This document shows, one piece after another, positions 5,765-36,616 of a stretch of DNA of 51,965 bases. Position numbers and translations under genes: made by a program. Location of the stretch: positions 1 through 51,965 of the forward strand of contig CAYNPZ010000002.1 of the NCBI GenBank assembly GCA_964399175.1, in the 5' to 3' direction. This DNA is from an uncultured Bacteroidales bacterium (GTDB lineage Bacteria; Bacteroidota; Bacteroidia; Bacteroidales; UBA12077). Position 1 is the stretch's first letter, and each line of letters opens with the position of its first letter. The notes beneath the pieces were generated by a model. The model was given only the letters and a program-made list of their open reading frames with translations. It made no database searches and was not told the DNA's origin.

Positions 5765-6019
5765 TTCGGGCTAAATGTTTCACGAGGTCTGTTAAATGAA
5801 CTTTATGCTTTGGCTTTTGCTGCACCTTCCATTAACAATCTGTTAAAACCGCCTCTGTGCATGCTCGCACTTACATTTGCACTGAAAAACGTTAGAGGGA
5901 AATCTGAAATTTTTGTATAAACTTACAAAATTTATTCAATGGGGTCAATTTAGTTTTATCCTGTATTGGAATATTTTGAATGAAAAACAAATGAAAATAA
6001 TTTGAAAAATTATAAATGA

Positions 6020-6055
6020 ATTTTGTATATTTATGCAAAATTTATATATTTGCAT
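6020..6055 (+). promoter_or_regulatory. Promoter (TTTG -33-like, TATATTTG -7 box) overlapped by putative ArgR operator(s) for the GNAT-argG-argE-argH operon
   Basis: ATTTTGTATATTTATGCAA (6020-6038) matches the argR-upstream motif. A second related box TTTATATATTTGCAT follows at 6041-6055. Palindrome ATGCAAA-N9-TTTGCAT spans 6033-6055. TATATTTG at 6045-6052 lies about 40 nt before the ATG at 6094. Confidence 0.45.
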
Positions 6056-6093
6056 TTTGATTATGTATAATTCATTGTATAAATGGTATTCTT

Positions 6094-11814: not shown

Positions 11815-12075
11815 GATCTTCGCTAATTTGAATTTTAAGTGGCTCTAATATAATAAAACTTTCATTATTTTGATTAATTATAAATAAATTGCAGGGCGCA
11901 TTTCTCTATACATGAAATTTGCCGGAATGAAATCAGGAATTATTACTTTTGCTGCATCATAAAAATGGAGATATGGGACTATTTAGAGATTCCATATGGG
12001 TTTACGGGTGGTGTTGGCATAAATTGTCCGGAATTGCGAAAAGTTAGTTAATTAAAATATTAAAAATTAGATAAA

Positions 12076-17055: not shown

Positions 17056-17269
17056 CTTTCAAACACTTCTTTATACACCGTAACGAAATATTTGATTATA
17101 GGGTTATAAAATTATTTGTAAAATTTTATCAGTAGTATCCCGGCAAACTTGTATATTTGTTAATTATTGATGAATGTTCATTATTGTTATGTCAATGAAC
17201 AAATCAGAAAATTCTTTATTACCAAATTAATTCCGATTATCTTGTATTAATCATCTAAAACCTTATATT

Positions 17270-26711: not shown

Positions 26712-27899
26712 TTATACCAACTCTTTAACCGCATCGGCCGCTTCCTGAAGGGTAATTGCCGATTTTACCTTTAATCCGCTTTCATCGATCAGCTTTTTGC
26801 CCTCTTCTGCGTTGGTTCCCTGTAGTCTTACTACAACCGGCACATGAATTTCCCCCAGTGCAGTGAAAGCTTCAGTAACGCCTTTGGCAACCCTGTCACA
26901 ACGGACAATTCCTCCGAATATATTGATCAATATGGCTTTGACATTGGGATCTTTGAGTATGATCCTGAAACCGGCTTCGACAGTCTCAGCATTGGCAGAC
27001 CCTCCTACATCCAGAAAATTTGCCGGATGTCCGCCCGATAGTTTAATAATGTCCATTGTAGCCATGGCCAGGCCGGCCCCGTTTACCATGCAACCCACAT
27101 TGCCATCCAGTTTGATGAAGTTGAGGTTGTTTTTATCTGCCTCCATCTCAGCCGGGTTTTCTTCTGTGGTATCTCTCAGATCAAGGTAATCCTTATGCCG
27201 GAATAATGCATTATCATCCAGGTTAATCTTGGCATCAGCTGCAAGAATTTTATTATCGGAGGTTTTAAACAGGGGATTGATCTCTATCAGGGAGGCATCC
27301 GTATTCAGGTAAGCACGGTAGAGTTTGATGACGAAGCGTACCATTTCTTTAAATGCATTTCCGCTAAGGCCCAGGTTAAATGCGATTTTTCGGGCCTGGT
27401 ACATTTGAATGCCCAGCCCTGAATGTATTTCTTCCTTAAAGATCAGTTGGGGTGTGTTTTCTGCTACCGATTCAATATCCACTCCACCCTCGGTGGAATA
27501 CATGATGATGTTTTTTCCCGTGTTTCGGTTCAGGAGAACACCCATGTAAAATTCTGCTGGTTCACTTTCTCCTTCGTAATATATGCCTTGTTCAATGAGT
27601 AATCGGTGCACCTTTTTACCTTCTTTCCCCGTTTGGTGGGTGAACAGGTTCATTCCCAGTATGTTTTCCGCGTGTGATTTGACCTCTTCCAAAGTTCTGG
27701 CTATTTTAACTCCTCCACCTTTACCGCGGCCTCCGGCATGGATCTGGGCTTTCACTGCCCAGGTATTGGTACCCGTGACTTCCTGTATTGTATTGGCTGC
27801 CTGGATGGCATCTTCTGCTTTCCGGATCATCCTGCCCTCGGGTACCGGAACCCCGTTATCCCTTAGCAGGTTTTTTGCCTGGTATTCATGGATATTCAT
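26712..27899 (-). CDS. sucC: Succinate--CoA ligase (ADP-forming) beta subunit
   Basis: MNIHEYQAKNLL start, ATP-grasp motifs, GGRGKGGGVK and NIFGGIVRCD. Confidence 0.93.
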   Translation of the reverse strand: MNIHEYQAKNLLRDNGVPVPEGRMIRKAEDAIQAANTIQEVTGTNTWAVKAQIHAGGRGKGGGVKIARTLEEVKSHAENILGMNLFTHQTGKEGKKVHRLLIEQGIYYEGESEPAEFYMGVLLNRNTGKNIIMYSTEGGVDIESVAENTPQLIFKEEIHSGLGIQMYQARKIAFNLGLSGNAFKEMVRFVIKLYRAYLNTDASLIEINPLFKTSDNKILAADAKINLDDNALFRHKDYLDLRDTTEENPAEMEADKNNLNFIKLDGNVGCMVNGAGLAMATMDIIKLSGGHPANFLDVGGSANAETVEAGFRIILKDPNVKAILINIFGGIVRCDRVAKGVTEAFTALGEIHVPVVVRLQGTNAEEGKKLIDESGLKVKSAITLQEAADAVKELV

Positions 27900-28039: not shown

Positions 28040-28115
28040 ATTATTTAGAATTTTTTTAAATTAAACTGTTATTTTATTAACAGTGTTATTATATTAACAA
28101 ACTATATTATATTCG
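28040..28115 (+). promoter_or_regulatory. Promoter module of the signalling operon: two tandem TGTTA-N6-TAACA palindromes (Rex-box-like) plus -7-like box TATATTCG
   Basis: TGTTA 28067-71 / TAACA 28078-82 / G / TGTTA 28084-88 / TAACA 28095-99. TATATTCG lies at 28108-28115. The whole block has about 80 percent identity to 31958-32032 with identical spacing to the -7 box. Confidence 0.6.
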
Positions 28116-28162
28116 CAGATATGAATGATGAGAAATTAACAAAAATTCGCAAAGACAAGGCT

Positions 28163-28504
28163 ATGAAAGTATCCGAAATTGCCGGGCTGATAAACGCCAA
28201 TATTGTATGTAACTGCAAGGATGACCGGGAGGTCTCCAAAGCGTTTTCATCGGATCTGATGAGCGATGTACTTACGCTGGAAACGGATAATACATTGCTT
28301 ATCACCGGGCTGGCCAATGTCCAGGCCATCCGGACGGCAGAAATGTCGGATATCAACTGCATTGTATTTGCAAGAAACAAGAAGGTGAATGAGGATATGA
28401 AGCAGGTAGCCTTAGAAAATGATATTTTGCTGCTTGAGACGTCCTTTTCGGTTTTTAAAACCTCTGGAATCCTTTATCAGGAAGGTATCCAACCCATATT
28501 TTGA
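28163..28504 (+). CDS. DRTGG-domain protein (paralogue 1)
   Basis: About 113 aa from MKVSEIAGL. It aligns with the second DRTGG protein (MNVSELVNDL) and shares the motif SDLMSDV / SDLLSDV. The track start 28121 would lie on top of the predicted transcription start. Confidence 0.7.
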   Translation: MKVSEIAGLINANIVCNCKDDREVSKAFSSDLMSDVLTLETDNTLLITGLANVQAIRTAEMSDINCIVFARNKKVNEDMKQVALENDILLLETSFSVFKTSGILYQEGIQPIF

Positions 28505-28507
28505 CCG

Positions 28508-28921
28508 ATGGAGTTTAAATATGAAATAACAGGGGGTGATTTTTCCAGGGCAGGCTTTGCTTCCAGTCACCTGAAGAAGATTCTGAAGCAGATCAATATT
28601 GAACCCAGGCTGATCAAAAAGATCGTCATCGCCTTATATGAGGCAGAAGTCAATATTGTGGCTCATGCTTTTGAAGGAAAGATCAAGGTCAGCATAGAAC
28701 CGGACCGGATCATTATGGATGTTTCTGATAGAGGTTCGGGCATTGAAGATATTGACAAGGCTATGGAAGACGGATATTCCACTGCTTCGGATGAAGTCAG
28801 GGAGATGGGATTTGGAGCCGGGATGGGTCTTTCCAATATCAAAAACAACTCAGATGAGTTGGAGATCAACAGTACCGTGAATGAGGGTACTGAACTGAAA
28901 ATTATTAAAAGACTGAATTGA
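28508..28921 (+). CDS. Small GHKL ATPase / anti-sigma-factor-type serine kinase-like protein (RsbW/SpoIIAB-like)
   Basis: N-box EAEVNIVAHA, G1 box DRGSGI, G2 box GFGAGMGL. It is 137 aa with no sensor or DHp domain. Confidence 0.7.
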   Translation: MEFKYEITGGDFSRAGFASSHLKKILKQINIEPRLIKKIVIALYEAEVNIVAHAFEGKIKVSIEPDRIIMDVSDRGSGIEDIDKAMEDGYSTASDEVREMGFGAGMGLSNIKNNSDELEINSTVNEGTELKIIKRLN

Positions 28922-28923
28922 TT

Positions 28924-30288
28924 ATGAATAAGCAAACTTTTCATCATGCATTGAAAATACAAAGGGAAATCTGTATCGGTTGCGCTCATTGTATGAATGT
29001 GTGTCCTACCGGTGCGTTGCGGGTACGTGAAGGCAAGGCTGTTTTGCTCGAAGAAAGATGTGTAGATTGTGGAGAATGTTACCGGGCTTGTCCTGTTAAT
29101 GCCATTTCGGTGGAACAGGACGATTTTAACCAGGTTTATGATTTTAATTACAGTGTGTTGCTGGTGCCTGAAGTTCTGTTCGGGCAGTTTCCTGAAGATG
29201 TTGACAAGGATTTGATCAATGAAACCTTACGGGAGATGGGTTTTAATGAGGTGGTGGAAGTGGAACATGCTGCCGAGATATTGAAAAACAGCACCAAAGA
29301 GTACAGCCGCAATACCAGTCAGGAGCGACCCCTTATATCTGCCTTTTGTCCTGCCATTGTGAGGCTTATACAGGTCAGATTCCCTTCACTTGTGGATCAT
29401 ATCATCCTGCAAAAACCCCCGCTGAACATTACGGCACTCTACTATAAAAAGAAACTTATGGATCAGGGGGTTGATCCAGAGGATATTGGAATTTTCTATG
29501 TCACCCAGTGCGCCGCTAAGATTGCAGCTGTTAAAAGCCCTGTGGGTGATACCAATGTTAATATTGATGGTGTAATCAATCTGGATTTTGTTTATAATAA
29601 GATTTATTCCATACTGAAAGCTCGTAAAAACTCCAGGGAAACCACTTCGGAACCTTCAGAGGAAGCGCTGTCCCCGGAAGTCGTTAGATGGAGCCTCACC
29701 CACGGAGAATCGGATAACTGTGAAGGCAGATGCCTTGCAATAGATGGGATACAGAACGTGATTGAGATTCTCGAAAAGGTGGAGGATGGAGAAATGGATG
29801 ATGTGGATTTCCTGGAGCTCCGGGCTTGCGACGAAAGCTGTGCCGGCGGTATCCTTAATCCGGCAAACCGTTTCCTGACTGTTGAAAGGTTGAGGAATAA
29901 GGCTAAGAAACTTGAACAGGCAAGGATATCCGGACAAAAATCCTCCTCAGGGATCATTCATTATCAGAAGTATCTATTGAAGAATATTGAATTACAGACA
30001 GTAATGCCACGCTCCATAATGAAGCTGGATGAGGATATGACTCGCGCGCTTAAGAAGATGCGCAGGATTAAAGATCTGATGAATACACTGCCCGGGGTGG
30101 ACTGCGGGGTCTGTGGAGCTCCCAGTTGTTCTGCCCTTGCTGAAGATATCGTGAATCAGAATGCCAGCCTTAAGGATTGTATTTTTATACAGCGAAAGTA
30201 TGAACACAATAAACTTCAGCGGCCCGAAGATTCTTATGAGATCATGAAAAATATATGGGGTGAGAATAAATTGAGTAACAATTATTAA
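28924..30288 (+). CDS. HydS-like putative sensory [FeFe]-hydrogenase homologue (2x[4Fe-4S] ferredoxin N-terminus, degenerate H-cluster domain, C-terminal Cys4 Fe-S domain)
   Basis: Ferredoxin motifs CIGCAHCMNVCP and CVDCGECYRACP. H-cluster motif analogues SAFCPAI, TQCAAK and ACDESCAGGILNP. C-terminal CGVCGAPSC...C. Confidence 0.75.
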   Translation: MNKQTFHHALKIQREICIGCAHCMNVCPTGALRVREGKAVLLEERCVDCGECYRACPVNAISVEQDDFNQVYDFNYSVLLVPEVLFGQFPEDVDKDLINETLREMGFNEVVEVEHAAEILKNSTKEYSRNTSQERPLISAFCPAIVRLIQVRFPSLVDHIILQKPPLNITALYYKKKLMDQGVDPEDIGIFYVTQCAAKIAAVKSPVGDTNVNIDGVINLDFVYNKIYSILKARKNSRETTSEPSEEALSPEVVRWSLTHGESDNCEGRCLAIDGIQNVIEILEKVEDGEMDDVDFLELRACDESCAGGILNPANRFLTVERLRNKAKKLEQARISGQKSSSGIIHYQKYLLKNIELQTVMPRSIMKLDEDMTRALKKMRRIKDLMNTLPGVDCGVCGAPSCSALAEDIVNQNASLKDCIFIQRKYEHNKLQRPEDSYEIMKNIWGENKLSNNY

Positions 30289-30299
30289 AATTTTGTAAT

Positions 30300-30653
30300 A
30301 TGAACGTTTCAGAATTAGTAAATGATTTAGGGTTAGTTATATATAGTGGTAAGAAGGCATTGGAACGTGCCATAAAAGGAGGGTACGCCTCTGATCTGTT
30401 GAGTGATGTGATGGGGAATGCGAGAGAAGGACAGGTTTGGATTACTTTACAAACCCATAAGAATATGGCGGCCATCGCATCACTCAAAGATCTGGCAGCT
30501 GTGATACTGGTTAAAGGCAACCAGCCCGATGAGGATACAGCCAGCCACAGTGATGAGGAAGGTGTTCCGATACTGGGAACTGAACTCAATGCCTTTGAAA
30601 TTACAGGCAAAGTATATGAAAAGCTTAAAGCTCATGAAATTGTTCAAGGCTGA
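30300..30653 (+). CDS. DRTGG-domain protein (paralogue 2)
   Basis: 117 aa and alignable to 28163-28504 (GYASDLLSDVMG, AAVILVKG, VPILGTEL.AFE). Confidence 0.7.
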   Translation: MNVSELVNDLGLVIYSGKKALERAIKGGYASDLLSDVMGNAREGQVWITLQTHKNMAAIASLKDLAAVILVKGNQPDEDTASHSDEEGVPILGTELNAFEITGKVYEKLKAHEIVQG

Positions 30654-31374
30654 TCTTCACGTTCATACTGTGTTATCTCCCTGCGGAGATCTGGAAATGA
30701 GTCCGGAACAGATCATCGCCGGTGCCAGAGATCAGGGTCTGGACATTCTGGGTATTACCGATCATAATTCCACCCGACAGTGTGAAGTAATGAAACGGTT
30801 AGGAGCCAGAGAAGGCATTTATATCCTTTGCGGTGCGGAGGTAAATACCAGGGAAGAAGTACACTGTCTTGCTTTTTTTGAACAAACCGAACAGCTGAAA
30901 GCTTTTGAGCAAATTATGGAAGATCATTTGCCGGATATAAAAAACGATCCTGAAAAATTCGGCTATCAGGCAGTGGTCGATGAAGATGAGTTTATACTGG
31001 ATCAACCGGAGAAACTGCTCATAAACGCTATTGAAATGGGTATTGAAGAAGTGGAAAAAAAGGTTCATGAAATGGACGGGATTTTTATTCCTGCCCACAT
31101 CGACCGCATCAGAAACGGAATCATTGGGCAACTGGGTTTCATACCCGGGAATTTGAAGTGTGATGCACTTGAACTGTCTCCCTACGCTGATTATGAAAGT
31201 CTTCTGAGAGAATTTAATTATTTGGAAAAGTATGAATTTGTTCAGGGCTCAGATGCTCATTACCCCAAAGATATTGGCAGGGTACATACCATGTTTTATC
31301 TTGAGAATGCTGGATTTGCAGAGATTAAAATGGCCCTTGCGGGATTGAACGGAAGAAAAACTCAAATTAAATGA
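30634..31374 (+). CDS. PHP-domain metal-dependent phosphoesterase
   Basis: MKLFKADLHVHTVLSPCGD (HxH motif), GITDHNS, PAHIDR, GSDAH. The start could be 30634 or 30616. It overlaps the preceding gene, and ATGA overlaps the next gene. Confidence 0.75.
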   Translation: MKLFKADLHVHTVLSPCGDLEMSPEQIIAGARDQGLDILGITDHNSTRQCEVMKRLGAREGIYILCGAEVNTREEVHCLAFFEQTEQLKAFEQIMEDHLPDIKNDPEKFGYQAVVDEDEFILDQPEKLLINAIEMGIEEVEKKVHEMDGIFIPAHIDRIRNGIIGQLGFIPGNLKCDALELSPYADYESLLREFNYLEKYEFVQGSDAHYPKDIGRVHTMFYLENAGFAEIKMALAGLNGRKTQIK

Positions 31375-31940
31375 AAACACTATCTTATCATTTATTGGAT
31401 ATAGTGCAGAATTCGCTTAACGCAGGAGCAGATCTGGTGGAAATCAACATCCGGGAGGATGATAGAAAAGGCCTTTTTAGCCTTATTATTACCGACAACG
31501 GTAAGGGGATGGATCATAATACGTTACAAAAAGCCATCGATCCCTATTTTTCGACCCGGAAAGAAAGAAAGATTGGTCTGGGGCTTTCTCTTCTGAAGCA
31601 AAATACAGAACGAACCGGAGGCAGATTTTCAATAGATTCTGAGCCTGGAAAGGGAACCCGGGTAACGGCCGAATTTGTAAAAACCCATATCGATTGTCCT
31701 GCAATAGGTGACCTGGCAGGCACTGTTCATCAGATTATTGTATTCAATTCCAAAAAGGATTTTGTTTACCACCATTATCGGGATGGAGGGGGTTTTGAGA
31801 TTAATTCCCGCCAGATAAAAGAAGTGCTTGACCAGTTGCCACTCCATCATCCGGAGATAAGCAGATACATCGAAGAAATGATCCGGGAGAATCTGAAAGG
31901 GTTGAGGGAAGAGGCAGACGCCATCGACCAATATTCCTGA
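31371..31940 (+). CDS. Stand-alone GHKL (HATPase_c) ATPase with a C-terminal extension of about 80 aa
   Basis: N-box LLDIVQNSLNAGA, G1 box DNGKGM, G2 box GLGLSLL, plus GKGTRV. No DHp, His-phosphotransfer or sensor domain is visible. Confidence 0.7.
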   Translation: MKTLSYHLLDIVQNSLNAGADLVEINIREDDRKGLFSLIITDNGKGMDHNTLQKAIDPYFSTRKERKIGLGLSLLKQNTERTGGRFSIDSEPGKGTRVTAEFVKTHIDCPAIGDLAGTVHQIIVFNSKKDFVYHHYRDGGGFEINSRQIKEVLDQLPLHHPEISRYIEEMIRENLKGLREEADAIDQYS

Positions 31941-31957
31941 ATTATAGACTGGGGATT

Positions 31958-32032
31958 ATTATTTAGAATGATTTTAAATTAATTGTTAATTTAATAACAG
32001 TGTTAAAAAAATAACAATAAATTATATATTTG
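31958..32032 (+). promoter_or_regulatory. Promoter module of the hydrogenase operon: two tandem TGTTA-N6-TAACA palindromes (Rex-box-like) plus -7 box TATATTTG
   Basis: TGTTA 31984-88 / TAACA 31995-99 / G / TGTTA 32001-05 / TAACA 32012-16. TATATTTG at 32025-32032 follows after an 8 nt gap, exactly as in the 28040-28115 copy. The ATG lies 55 nt downstream. Confidence 0.65.
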
Positions 32033-32086
32033 TATCGTCATGTAGGTTGAAGAACAAACCATATAATTTAAAACATACTGAAAACT

Positions 32087-32485
32087 ATGGCAAAAATTAA
32101 ATCTCTTGAAGACTTAAAAAAGAAAAAAGAGAATCTGCAGAAAAAGGTAGATCTAAGAGAGCGCGCCGATCATCCTGAAAATTATGTTCAGATTAAGGTT
32201 GGCATGGCAACAAGCGGAATTGCTTCAGGTGCAAAGGAGGTTATGGATTATCTTATGGATGAATTGGAAAAACGCAATATTGAAGCCGTTGTCACTCAAG
32301 CGGGTGATATGGGATACAGCTATGCCGAACCCACGATTGAAGTAAAGAAACCGGGAGAAGAAGCGGTGGTTTTTGGTTGGGTGGATACTAAAAAGGCGGA
32401 TGAAATAATTGAAAGATACATCAAGCGAGGAGAACTGGTTGACGGTATCCTTCCACAAAATTACAGAACAATTGATGAGGAATAA
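32087..32485 (+). CDS. Thioredoxin-like [2Fe-2S]-ferredoxin-fold protein lacking all cysteines (paralogue of the HydB N-terminal domain)
   Basis: It aligns to the HydB N-terminus. VGMATSGIASGA corresponds to VCGGTGCRASAS, and AGDMGYSYAEP corresponds to TGCFGFCEKGP. The 132 aa protein has no Cys at all. Confidence 0.65.
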   Translation: MAKIKSLEDLKKKKENLQKKVDLRERADHPENYVQIKVGMATSGIASGAKEVMDYLMDELEKRNIEAVVTQAGDMGYSYAEPTIEVKKPGEEAVVFGWVDTKKADEIIERYIKRGELVDGILPQNYRTIDEE

Positions 32486-32506
32486 TTTAAAACAGGAGGA
32501 TTGATC

Positions 32507-34300
32507 ATGGCAAAAAATAAGATGCACTTGCTTGTTTGTGGGGGTACAGGATGTCGTGCCTCAGCGAGTGATTCCATTGCAGAAAGTCTGAAAGAGAAGA
32601 TTGAGGAGAACAATCTCCAGGATGAGGTACAGGTTATCTTTACCGGATGTTTCGGCTTTTGCGAGAAAGGACCTATCGTAAAGGTATTACCCGACAATAC
32701 ATTTTATACACAGGTAAAACCTGAGGACAGCGACGAGATCGTTAAGGAACACCTCATCAAGGGAAGACAGGTGGAGCGGTTGCTCTATAAAGATCCTGAG
32801 AGGGGAGAGACAATCCATGATTCCAAGCACATGGATTTCTATAAAAAACAAATCAGAATAGCCCTCAGGAATTGTGGTTTTATTGATCCGGAGAATATTG
32901 ATGAATATATTGCCCGGGATGGATATTTTGCCCTGGGGACGGTATTGAAGGAGATGAGCCAGGAAGATGTCATCAATGAAGTTAAGGAATCCGGATTAAG
33001 AGGTCGCGGCGGTGGAGGTTTTCCCGCCGGGTTGAAATGGGAGTTCGCCTATAAAAATGAGTCCGATCAGAAATATGTGGTTTGTAATGCAGATGAAGGC
33101 GATCCCGGTGCATTTATGGACCGTTCCATACTTGAGGGCGATCCTCACGCTGTGCTTGAAGCCATGGCCATTTGCGGATACGCCACCGGCGCTGACAAGG
33201 GCTTGATTTACATCAGAGCAGAATATCCTCTGGCAATCAAGAGACTTAAAATTGCCATAGATCAGGCCAGAGAATATGGATTGCTGGGTGAAAAGATATT
33301 TGATACAGACTTCAATTTTGATATACAATTGCGATATGGTGCAGGAGCCTTTGTATGCGGTGAGGAAACAGCGCTGATCCATTCTATGGAAGGAGACAGG
33401 GGAGAGCCAACTTTTAAACCCCCTTTTCCCGCCGAATCCGGTTACCTTGGTAAACCCACAAACGTAAATAATGTGGAGACCTACGCCAGTGTTCCTGTAA
33501 TCATTAACAAGGGAGCCGGTTGGTTTAATAAGATAGGTACCGAGAAATCAAAAGGTACCAAGGTTTTTGCACTGGCCGGAAAAGTGAACAATGTAGGGCT
33601 TATTGAAGTACCCATGGGCACTACCCTCAAGGAAGTGGTTTTTGAAATTGGTGGGGGAATTAAAGATGGAAAGAAATTTAAGGCTGTGCAAACCGGCGGA
33701 CCTTCCGGCGGGTGCCTTACAGAAGAACATCTCGATACACCCATTGACTTTGATAACCTTCTCGCTGTAGGTTCCATGATGGGTTCCGGGGGTATGATTG
33801 TTATGGATGAAGATGATTGCATGGTATCGGTTGCCAAGTTCTTCCTGGAGTTTACCGTGGAAGAATCCTGTGGAAAATGTTCTCCATGCCGGATAGGGAA
33901 CAAGCGGATGCATGAGCTGCTTGAACGCATTACTCAGGGGAAAGCAGAGCGAAAGGAGCTTCAGCGACTGAAAAATATGTGCCATGTGATTGCTGATACT
34001 TCTTTATGTGGATTGGGACAGACCGCACCCAGCCCGGTACTCTCAACCCTGCACAATTTCTGGGAAGAGTATGTGGCACACGTGGAAGATCAAAGGTGCC
34101 CCGCAGGTTCGTGTAAAGAGCTCATGCGTTACGAAATCATGCCCGAAAACTGTGTTGGTTGTACCGCTTGTGCCAGGAAATGCCCCGTCGGAGCAATAAC
34201 AGGCGAAAGAAAACAGGTACATGAGATCGACCAGGATAAATGTATAAAATGCGGTGCTTGTCTGGAAGCTTGTAAATTTGATGCGGTAATAGTAAAATAA
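32507..34300 (+). CDS. hydB: NuoF-like flavoprotein subunit HydB of electron-bifurcating [FeFe]-hydrogenase (N-terminal [2Fe-2S], FMN/NADH site, [4Fe-4S], C-terminal 2x[4Fe-4S])
   Basis: CGGTGC...CFGFC. GLRGRGGGGFPAGLKW FMN motif. ESCGKCSPCR. CVGCTACARKCP and CIKCGACLEAC. AGGAGG lies 7 nt before the ATG at 32507. Confidence 0.9.
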   Translation: MAKNKMHLLVCGGTGCRASASDSIAESLKEKIEENNLQDEVQVIFTGCFGFCEKGPIVKVLPDNTFYTQVKPEDSDEIVKEHLIKGRQVERLLYKDPERGETIHDSKHMDFYKKQIRIALRNCGFIDPENIDEYIARDGYFALGTVLKEMSQEDVINEVKESGLRGRGGGGFPAGLKWEFAYKNESDQKYVVCNADEGDPGAFMDRSILEGDPHAVLEAMAICGYATGADKGLIYIRAEYPLAIKRLKIAIDQAREYGLLGEKIFDTDFNFDIQLRYGAGAFVCGEETALIHSMEGDRGEPTFKPPFPAESGYLGKPTNVNNVETYASVPVIINKGAGWFNKIGTEKSKGTKVFALAGKVNNVGLIEVPMGTTLKEVVFEIGGGIKDGKKFKAVQTGGPSGGCLTEEHLDTPIDFDNLLAVGSMMGSGGMIVMDEDDCMVSVAKFFLEFTVEESCGKCSPCRIGNKRMHELLERITQGKAERKELQRLKNMCHVIADTSLCGLGQTAPSPVLSTLHNFWEEYVAHVEDQRCPAGSCKELMRYEIMPENCVGCTACARKCPVGAITGERKQVHEIDQDKCIKCGACLEACKFDAVIVK

Positions 34301-34308
34301 AGGATATA

Positions 34309-36090
34309 ATGATGGAAAAAGTTCAGGTAACCATAGATGATAAAAAGGTAGAAGTTCCCAAAGGAACTACCATATATAAAGCGGCCAAAGAGGTTGGGAT
34401 TGATATTCCGGTATTGTGCTATATGAATCTGGAAGATATCGGAGTAGAAAATAAACCCGGAGGCTGCAGGGTTTGTAGCGTAGAAGTAGAGGGCAGGAAA
34501 AACCTTGCTCCCGCCTGCGCTACAGAAGTGTATGACGGCATGGTAGTGAAGACTCATACCATGCGGGTGATCAATGCCAGAAGAACTGTTGTGGAATTTA
34601 TTCTTTCCGATCACCCTAAAGATTGTCTGACCTGCAAAAAGTCAGGAAACTGTGAACTGCAGGATCTGGCAATCAGGTTGGGGATTCGTGAGATACCCGG
34701 ACAGGAGTATGCAGAGATGTCCACCTACAAAACCGACTATTCACCCTCCATTGTAAGGGAGCTGGACAAATGCATCATGTGCAGAAGATGTGAGAAGATG
34801 TGTAATGAATTCCAGACTGTCGGTGCCTTATATGCATTTAACAGAGGATTTGATGCAGCTGTAGCGCCTGCATTTGAAATGGACCTGCAGTATTCACCTT
34901 GTACCTATTGCGGACAGTGTGTTGCAGTTTGTCCTACCGGCGCTTTGACAGAGGTTGATCATTCTCGTGATCTGATAGATGCCATTTCCGATCCAAACAC
35001 CACAGTGGTTGCACAGACAGCCCCTGCTGTACGTGCAGCTTTGGGTGAGGAGTTCGGGTATGAACCAGGAACACTGGTTACTGGTAAGATGGTTAGCGCC
35101 CTTCGCAGGCTTGGTTTCGACTATGTGTTTGATACCGACTTTGCCGCCGACCTGACCATCGTGGAAGAAGGAACGGAATTGCTCGACCGGCTGTCAAAGT
35201 ACCTGGACGGCGATCAGGATGTGGAACTGCCTATGCTGACTTCCTGCTGCCCGGCATGGGTTCGGTTTATCGAACATCATTTTCCTGAAATGAAAGATAT
35301 TCCTTCTTCGGCACGTTCGCCCCAACAGATGTTCGGATCTGTGGCAAAAACTTATTTTGCCGATAAGATCAATCAGAAAAGGGAAAATATGGTGGTTGTT
35401 TCCATTATGCCCTGCCTGGCCAAAAAATATGAAAGCCAAAGGGACGAGTTTAGGGTGGATGATAACCCGGATGTAGATTTTTCTGTTACCACAAGGGAGT
35501 TGGCCCATCTGATCAAAGAGACAAATTTCCATCTGAAAGATATGGAAGAAGAAGATTTTGATAAACCTATGGGAGAATCCACTGGTGCTGGTGTGATGTT
35601 TGGAACAACCGGCGGTGTGATTGAGGCAGCTACCCGAACAGCATATGATATGTATACAGGCAATTCGCTGAATGAAAGCATAGAATTTGAGCAGTTGAGA
35701 GGGTTTGAAGCCATCCGTAAAGCCACTGTAGATTTCAACGGTACAGAAATCAATATCGGTATAGCCCATGGATTAGGTAATGCAAGAAAGCTTCTTGAGG
35801 AGATTAAGGAAGGGAAATCGGAATTCCACGCCATTGAAATCATGGCCTGCCCTGGTGGATGTATCGGCGGTGGAGGTCAGCCTTTACATCACAACGACAC
35901 AAGTATTCTAAAGGCCAGACAAAAAGCCATATATCAGGAAGACAAGAACAAGCCGATCAGGAAGTCTCATGAGAATCCAGAGATCAAGAAGCTATATGAG
36001 GAGTATCTTGGAAAACCCATGGGAGAAAAAGCTCATAAGTTGTTACATACCCGGTATTTCGATGTAAGCCGGAAAATTGAAATCGAATGA
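34309..36090 (+). CDS. hydA: [FeFe]-hydrogenase catalytic subunit HydA (NuoG-like [2Fe-2S], His-ligated and 2x[4Fe-4S] domains, H-cluster domain)
   Basis: Canonical H-cluster motifs TSCCPAWV, MPCLAKKYE and EIMACPGGCIGGGGQP. N-terminal CRVCSVEV, HPKDCLTCKKSGNCELQ, CIMCRRCEKMC and CTYCGQCVAVCP. Confidence 0.93.
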   Translation: MMEKVQVTIDDKKVEVPKGTTIYKAAKEVGIDIPVLCYMNLEDIGVENKPGGCRVCSVEVEGRKNLAPACATEVYDGMVVKTHTMRVINARRTVVEFILSDHPKDCLTCKKSGNCELQDLAIRLGIREIPGQEYAEMSTYKTDYSPSIVRELDKCIMCRRCEKMCNEFQTVGALYAFNRGFDAAVAPAFEMDLQYSPCTYCGQCVAVCPTGALTEVDHSRDLIDAISDPNTTVVAQTAPAVRAALGEEFGYEPGTLVTGKMVSALRRLGFDYVFDTDFAADLTIVEEGTELLDRLSKYLDGDQDVELPMLTSCCPAWVRFIEHHFPEMKDIPSSARSPQQMFGSVAKTYFADKINQKRENMVVVSIMPCLAKKYESQRDEFRVDDNPDVDFSVTTRELAHLIKETNFHLKDMEEEDFDKPMGESTGAGVMFGTTGGVIEAATRTAYDMYTGNSLNESIEFEQLRGFEAIRKATVDFNGTEINIGIAHGLGNARKLLEEIKEGKSEFHAIEIMACPGGCIGGGGQPLHHNDTSILKARQKAIYQEDKNKPIRKSHENPEIKKLYEEYLGKPMGEKAHKLLHTRYFDVSRKIEIE

Positions 36091-36121
36091 TTGATTCATT
36101 AAATATCAGGAGGAAATACTC

Positions 36122-36616
36122 ATGTCCAGTATAAAAGTAAAGCTTAAAGAAAAGGATCTGAAAGAGATTAAAGAGATCTGCAGGGCTCATGGCAATGAGC
36201 CCGGCGAACTGATTAACGTCCTGCAGCAGATCCAGGAGCATTTTGGTTATTTGCCTGCTGAAGTGCAGGAGGCAGTGGCCAGTGAATTAGGCTTGCCTGT
36301 GGCGAAGGTCTATGGTGTGGTTACTTTCTACTCATTCTTTACCATGATTCCTCAGGGAGAGTATCCCATATCCGTTTGCACCGGTACCGCTTGTTATGTA
36401 AGAGGAGCAGATAACGTGCTGCAGGAATTCAAAAGGCAGTTGGGTTTGGAAGTGGGAGAAACAACTGGTGACGGCAAATTTAGTTTGAACTGCCTGCGTT
36501 GTGTGGGTGCTTGTGGACTGGCACCGGTTGTGCTGGTAGGAGATAAGACCTACGGAAGGGTAGCACCGGATGGTGTGAGAGATATAATTGCAGAATATAA
36601 GAAGAACGAAGAATAG
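36122..36616 (+). CDS. hydC: NuoE-like [2Fe-2S] subunit HydC
   Basis: CTGTACYVRGA...CLRCVGACGLAPV is the NuoE-type Cys4 pattern. AGGAGG at 36108-36113 lies 8 nt before the ATG. Confidence 0.9.
   Translation: MSSIKVKLKEKDLKEIKEICRAHGNEPGELINVLQQIQEHFGYLPAEVQEAVASELGLPVAKVYGVVTFYSFFTMIPQGEYPISVCTGTACYVRGADNVLQEFKRQLGLEVGETTGDGKFSLNCLRCVGACGLAPVVLVGDKTYGRVAPDGVRDIIAEYKKNEE

Follow-up and report, generated by a model that had tools for sequence, protein, structure and literature searches.

The window, that is, the whole stretch of 51,965 bp that was analysed, carries a signalling operon and a hydrogenase operon on the forward strand, preceded by sucC on the opposite strand:

26712-27899, minus strand: sucC, divergent from the first operon
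28163-31940, plus strand: sensor/signalling operon, delimited by Pfam, NCBIfam and start-codon comparison
32087-36616, plus strand: hydrogenase operon, assigned by Pfam and NCBIfam NF040763

The first operon encodes, in this order, a DRTGG protein, a SpoIIAB-like HATPase_c_2 protein, a HydS-like protein, a second DRTGG protein, a PHP protein and a HATPase_c protein. The hydrogenase operon encodes a 132-aa 2Fe-2S-ferredoxin-like protein (p132), HydB (NuoF-like), HydA and HydC (NuoE-like), and HydA scored 884 bits on NF040763 (NADH-dependent [FeFe] hydrogenase, group A6), for which the cut-off is 765. The HydS-like protein (28918-30288, 456 aa) combines ferredoxin and Fe_hyd_lg_C domains with a PF04060 Fe-S domain at its C-terminus; no PAS domain was found in it, and its scores are far under the cut-offs of the catalytic hydrogenase families. 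The small HATPase_c_2 protein (28508-28921) resembles the anti-sigma F factor SpoIIAB (TIGR01925, E = 9e-19, below the cut-off), and a SpoIIE/PP2C phosphatase gene flanks a second hydrogenase type in relatives (e.g., L012:2920-4221); together, these two proteins hint at partner-switching signalling. The longest ORF for the PHP protein (30529-31374) overlaps the second DRTGG gene (30300-30653) by about 125 nt, and its true start is probably near 30650, since the PHP match in relatives begins right after the second DRTGG gene.

Elsewhere, the window encodes a Por_Secre_tail protein; this protein and the TAnnTTTG boxes assign the window to Bacteroidota. Window DNA was found in DNA metagenome runs from sediment and a salt lake. 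AT-rich direct-repeat families at 5979-6066, 11847-11890 and 17149-17192 link the promoter regions adjacent to argR and the genes of arginine biosynthesis, a PALP-enzyme gene and an M49 peptidase gene, and may be shared operator or promoter elements, e.g., ARG boxes.

Each of the two operons is preceded by a copy of the same promoter region, and the two promoters are 3.9 kb apart. The first-pass annotation had put their similarity at about 80% with one 1-nt indel; global alignment of 28040-28099 with 31958-32016 gave 50 identical positions out of 60 (83%) with one such indel, and 60 out of 76 (79%) upon extension to the -7 boxes. Chance resemblance of AT-rich DNA does not account for this value, as the local alignment score of the two copies was 45, while no other place in the window, on either strand, scored above 22 and none of 5000 composition-matched shuffles reached 45 (shuffle maximum, 27). 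The following elements were recognised in the two copies, with positions relative to the predicted transcription start given for copy 1:

28043-28061, plus strand: upstream 19-bp near-palindrome of copy 1, ATTTAGAATTTTTTTAAAT, matched on both strands, at about -78 to -60
28067-28082, no strand assigned: Rex-type operator 1a, TGTTATTTTATTAACA, an exact palindrome, at about -54 to -39
28084-28099, no strand assigned: Rex-type operator 1b, TGTTATTATATTAACA, at about -37 to -22, overlapping the -33 region
28108-28115, plus strand: Bacteroidota -7 box, TATATTCG, matching TAnnTTTG at 7 of 8 positions, predicted start near 28120-28123
31961-31979, plus strand: upstream 19-bp near-palindrome of copy 2, ATTTAGAATGATTTTAAAT, matched on both strands
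31984-31999, no strand assigned: Rex-type operator 2a, TGTTAATTTAATAACA, an exact palindrome
32001-32016, no strand assigned: Rex-type operator 2b, TGTTAAAAAAATAACA, overlapping the -33 region
32025-32032, plus strand: Bacteroidota -7 box, TATATTTG, an exact match to TAnnTTTG, predicted start near 32037-32040

The blocks ATTATTTAGAAT and TTTTAAATTAA, the tandem TGTTA-N6-TAACA repeats that follow them, and a gap of exactly 8 nt between the last TAACA and the -7 box are present in both copies, with the coordinates and sequences that had been claimed at first reading. Exact TGTTA-N6-TAACA sites occur four times in the window, at 28067, 28084, 31984 and 32001, and all of them belong to the two tandems. 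Only 0.03 such sites would be expected by chance, none of 100 shuffles contained four or more, and a scan of the whole window with one mismatch allowed revealed no site beyond the exact four.

Copy 1 is located in the divergent intergenic region shared with sucC, as originally noted, and adjacency to sucC was seen in none of the related loci. The proposal that the first DRTGG gene starts at 28163 rather than at 28121 was also supported: in most alignments, the homologues match only from residue 15 of the ORF starting at 28121 onwards, they are typically 114 aa long, and the ATG at 28121 would be at the 5' end of the transcript. The start is therefore placed at 28163.

A DNA-only scan for TGTTA-N6-TAACA-N-TGTTA-N6-TAACA across 185,579 species genomes revealed at least 120 loci, and 117 of the 120 tandem loci listed carry the Bacteroidota label. 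In 96 of these 120, the tandem lies directly upstream of [FeFe]-hydrogenase or DRTGG-sensor operons, as assigned by tblastn with the window proteins. The listed loci include 26 with the DRTGG sensor operon, in which the same gene order as in the window follows the tandem, 30 with p132-HydB-HydA-HydC, 36 with HydC-HydB-HydA, and four with a HydA-like gene. The two copies of the window resemble each other, have counterparts ahead of the same types of operon in Bacteroidota, and are real, conserved cis-regulatory modules. The centre-to-centre distance of 17 bp was found for 242 of the 258 exact sites in the listed loci, a share that is inflated by the selection of these loci for exact tandems. 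Other targets among the loci listed are genes for V-ATPase subunit E (six loci: L005, L022, L086, L102, L107 and L111), glutamate dehydrogenase (three: L019, L096 and L114) and a formate-dehydrogenase-alpha-like protein (three: L002, L056 and L094), as well as citrate lyase CitD/CitE (L095), a cNMP-fumarase fusion and OsmC. No clear gene was present within 900 bp of the tandem in six loci.

Several of these loci show additional features. In some promoters, the 5' leader region contains a third site, a single TGTTA-N6-TAACA at a distance of 56-87 bp from the tandem (L028:6613, L032:6401, L037:2020, L039:7548 and L099:7176). In a Sedimentisphaerales genome (L059:85-134), one of the few tandem matches outside Bacteroidota, two exact sites and then a one-mismatch site, TGTTATTTTTTTCACA, succeed one another at 17-bp spacing. 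At L069:1575-1607 and L106:6741-6773, the tandem starts right after a TAnnTTTG-like box, and a conserved stretch resembling a hairpin comes next; since there is no ORF within about 480 bp, a non-coding target is conceivable. The ORF for the formate-dehydrogenase-alpha-like protein at L002:1085-2161 ends at 358 aa, within the molybdopterin domain, and its early stop would fit an in-frame selenocysteine TGA codon.

Bacteroides promoters have a -33 TTTG element approximately 19-21 nt upstream of the -7 box, and transcription starts 5-8 nt after the -7 box, the distance that was assumed for the positions given here for the window. A sigma-70 promoter model was also scanned but is not applicable to Bacteroidota. 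Among the loci listed, an exact TAnnTTTG is found downstream of the operators in every one of the 26 DRTGG-type and in 28 of the 30 p132-type promoters. The gap between operator and -7 box is bimodal, being 8-11 nt in 36 and 28-30 nt in 15 of the 56 orthologous promoters; for the DRTGG-type promoters alone, it is 8-11 nt in 17 of 26 and 28-30 nt in eight more. Altogether, 51 of 56 orthologous promoters have an exact TAnnTTTG at one of the two distances, so that the -7 box occupies a conserved position and its initial assignment is supported. The -33 TTTG is absent from both window copies, and its expected position falls inside operator b (GTGTTA). In promoters of the 28-30 nt class, a TTG is located just after the operators, about 6 nt past the operator end, as a -33 TTG. 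Among the HydC-first promoters, 21 of 36 have no downstream -7 box and carry the operators about 30 nt before the ATG, which suggests that these operators lie at or after the transcription start.

The earlier reading that the operator overlaps the -33 region, in agreement with repression, is consistent with these data, because operator b would extend from about -37 to -22 and operator a from about -54 to -39 relative to the predicted start. The variable placement of the operators around the core promoter likewise fits a repressor better than an activator, although in the 28-30 nt class the operators are upstream of the -33 element, a position that would also suit an activator. With centres 17 bp apart, two bound dimers would be close together on different faces of the helix, if both sites are occupied at once, as assumed here.

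The upstream blocks ATTATTTAGAAT and TTTTAAATTAA together constitute a near-palindrome, ATTTAGAAT-N-(T/A)TTTTAAAT, for which the cross-genome consensus is ATTTAGAAT-N-ATT(A/T)TAAAT. In other genomes, this 19-bp palindrome is found at an offset of -22/-23 from the first operator in 12 of the 26 promoters of the DRTGG type, in 18 of the 30 of the p132 type and in none of the 36 HydC-first promoters with an exact tandem. Most matches located away from an exact tandem precede hydrogenase operons too. Further examples are at L120:6035, L030:1805 and L008:1749. Weak matches in the window at 5999, 11867, 14766, 25332 and 39485 have two mismatches each and lie in AT-rich or coding DNA. By-eye comparison with a degenerate Rex site, a Fur box and an ARG box revealed misfits in half-site, spacing or centre, and these assignments were rejected. 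Judging from its sequence, the 19-bp palindrome probably binds a factor other than Rex.

The tandem palindromes themselves resemble known operators of the NADH-sensing repressor Rex. Rex of Thermoanaerobacter ethanolicus binds ATTGTTANNNNNNTAACAAT (PMC5886521), and the clostridial Rex consensus is TTGTTAANNNNTTAACAA (PMC8457756, PMC4600107). For C. thermocellum Rex, the motif was derived from DAP-seq and verified by EMSA; no Rex target in that study was more widely conserved than the [FeFe]-hydrogenase operon (PMC8457756). All four exact sites of the window conform to the inverted repeat TGT(G/T)A-N6-T(C/A)ACA typical of Rex operators, and the sites lie in promoters of NAD(H)-linked energy genes, where they are kept before orthologous operons. 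The N6 spacers of the tandem sites do not match the clostridial A-N4-T preference.

No rex gene is present in the 52-kb window, and Rex is presumably encoded elsewhere in the source genome. A tblastn search detected three Rex-like genes in the 120 tandem loci listed (L032, L007 and L115). The probe was a B. subtilis Rex sequence, and the matches were verified independently with NCBIfam and PDB sequences: the three genes all score above the cut-off of NF003996, the NCBIfam equivalog for Rex, and solved Rex structures can be aligned with the L032 protein from end to end. Both L032 and L007 have rex and the DRTGG operon in divergent orientation, with the tandem in the intergenic region between them; in L007, a NuoE/NuoF-like gene follows rex, and in L032, the site TGTTATGGTAGCTACA upstream of rex abuts a -7 box.

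An independent set of 15 metagenome loci was collected by the Rex protein alone. Hydrogenase or DRTGG genes adjoin rex in 11 of these 15 loci; an exact tandem is present in four and a one-mismatch tandem in a fifth, and in four of the five tandem-bearing loci it is located between rex and a divergent DRTGG operon. Seven of the 15 loci have a site with no more than one mismatch 11-135 bp upstream of rex, while about 0.005 such sites per locus would be expected by chance at the background rate of the window. Sites upstream of rex, which are frequent but not obligatory among Rex regulons, would fit autoregulation. Comparative genomics thus supports the claim that one trans-acting factor controls both transcription units, and gives this factor a name, Rex. 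On this comparative evidence, the palindromes are most probably paired Rex operators within Bacteroidota promoters, and the further targets of the tandem would outline a wider redox and energy regulon, as expected for Rex.

Two other readings of the palindromes were considered. They could be sites of another dimeric regulator with 5-N6-5 geometry, for example one of the CRP/FNR family or one specific to Bacteroidota, the linkage to rex being coincidental. This geometry is indeed common to CRP-type sites (TGTGA-N6-TCACA), and the lack of rex in the window and a spacer composition unlike the clostridial Rex consensus would both be compatible with such a regulator. However, clustering of 772 ORFs from the 120 loci revealed no recurrent DNA-binding protein besides Rex, and the sole cNMP-binding match is fused to a fumarase-type lyase and is not a regulator. 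Moreover, rex genes adjoin the sites and bear upstream sites of their own, and the half-site TGTTA is that of validated Rex sites, whereas CRP sites have TGTGA. A CRP/FNR-type site was rejected on the grounds that the half-site differs from those of TGTGA-N6-TCACA and TTGAT-N4-ATCAA, no regulator of this family is linked to the loci or recurs in them, and the operator positions fit a repressor. Control by a regulator other than Rex therefore appears unlikely. It is also conceivable that the palindromes act in RNA, as leader or read-through hairpins serving as an attenuator, terminator or processing site. A hairpin of 5 bp can be drawn for each palindrome, and the terminator scan found no terminator between the two operons, so that read-through transcripts would carry copy 2. 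Nevertheless, both copies are upstream of a conserved -7 box and have no Rfam match, their predicted folding is no better than that of shuffled sequences (z-scores of -0.55 and -1.82), and one-mismatch sites near rex show no matching change in the partner half-site. A role in RNA is thus improbable in the extreme.

The description of the two copies as a duplicated module stands with respect to their similarity, which is real, but the copies are more aptly regarded as two promoters assembled from one set of binding sites. A recent segmental duplication, gene conversion or a small mobile or repeated element would make the similarity historical rather than functional, and the upstream block, 21 of 23 positions of which are identical between the copies if a 1-nt shift is allowed, could be seen in this light. 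Among 14 loci with the sensor operon directly before p132, a second tandem before p132 was found in only two, L046 and L120, so that the double arrangement is lineage-restricted, which would also agree with a duplication. The module itself is ancient and widely used, and its double placement in one cluster is a minority arrangement (2/14). Against a recent common origin of the copies, their identity is concentrated in the elements conserved across genomes, while the operator spacers share only 5 of 12 bases and the 8-nt gap 3 of 8. More than 90 genomes with unrelated flanks have this architecture before the same types of operon, and the window contains no further copies. A dispersed repeat or mobile element was rejected, since the window has only two copies, both in promoters, and the flanks are unrelated across genomes. 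Historical similarity without shared function is, overall, highly improbable.

The proposed Rex operators have clear counterparts in known systems. As in Thermoanaerobacter and Clostridia, the core half-sites are TGTTA/TAACA, the spacer is 6 nt long, the sites occupy promoters of [FeFe]-hydrogenase operons and of accessory operons, among them PHP and hfs-type genes (PMC5886521, PMC8457756), and some rex genes have sites of their own. Unlike in those bacteria, the sites described here belong to Bacteroidota and to promoters of the -7 TAnnTTTG type, they occur before hydrogenase operons as abutting pairs with fixed 17-bp centres, and the preference for flanking T/A and for an A-N4-T spacer is weak. 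The general ROP consensus TTGTGAANNNNTTCACAA (Thermus, Bacillus, Streptomyces, Caldithrix) shares the 18-bp inverted-repeat geometry and the link to NADH-oxidising enzymes, and in Caldithrix abyssi rex heads a hydrogenase cluster (PMC5317091). It differs at the fourth base of the half-site, where the window and most of the Bacteroidales loci have T rather than G. A connection between the two forms is provided by the hybrid TGTGA-N6-TAACA upstream of some distant rex homologues in L129, L131 and L134 (43-49% identity to the query Rex). The kind of regulation is thus ordinary, but no published Rex regulation in Bacteroides, Bacteroidetes or Bacteroidota was found in the literature searched, and for this phylum it had not previously been described there.

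Taken together, it is likely that each copy is a composite Bacteroidota promoter with a pair of Rex operators, through which Rex derepresses both operons at high NADH. From 5' to 3', the promoter would consist of the 19-bp AT-rich palindrome, two abutting 16-bp Rex operators with centres 17 bp apart, the 8-nt gap and TAnnTTTG. While the ratio of NADH to NAD+ is low, one Rex dimer would occupy each palindrome, covering the region from about -54 to -22 and blocking RNA polymerase. A rise in NADH would cause Rex to leave the DNA, whereupon HydABC, of the NADH-dependent, electron-bifurcating type, and the HydS/DRTGG/kinase sensor operon would be derepressed together, and the hydrogenase would reoxidise NADH by making H2. 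Since the two operons share the same pair of Rex sites, a build-up of NADH probably turns on the hydrogenase and the sensor operon at the same time.

As a more speculative and rather doubtful extension, one could hypothesise that Bacteroidota hydrogenase promoters have a fixed three-part control region. It would comprise an obligate Rex pair, whose 17-bp centres would reflect a higher-order Rex assembly not described elsewhere, and the hydrogenase-specific palindrome ATTTAGAAT-N-ATT(A/T)TAAAT, bound by a new regulator. This regulator could be the missing DNA-binding output of the putative H2-sensing HydS/DRTGG/SpoIIAB-like operon, and H2 and NADH/NAD+ would then be integrated at one promoter.

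Bacteroidales rank among the major fermenters of sediments, digesters and guts. To our knowledge, the control of H2 production in this order is poorly described, and we know of no organism for which the output of the putative H2-sensing HydS system has been established. If the proposed role of Rex is true, the 19-bp palindrome would offer a DNA bait for a regulator that may act downstream of this system, the hydrogen output of these communities would be tied directly to the cellular NADH/NAD+ ratio, and the motif would allow redox regulons to be predicted in thousands of uncultured genomes.
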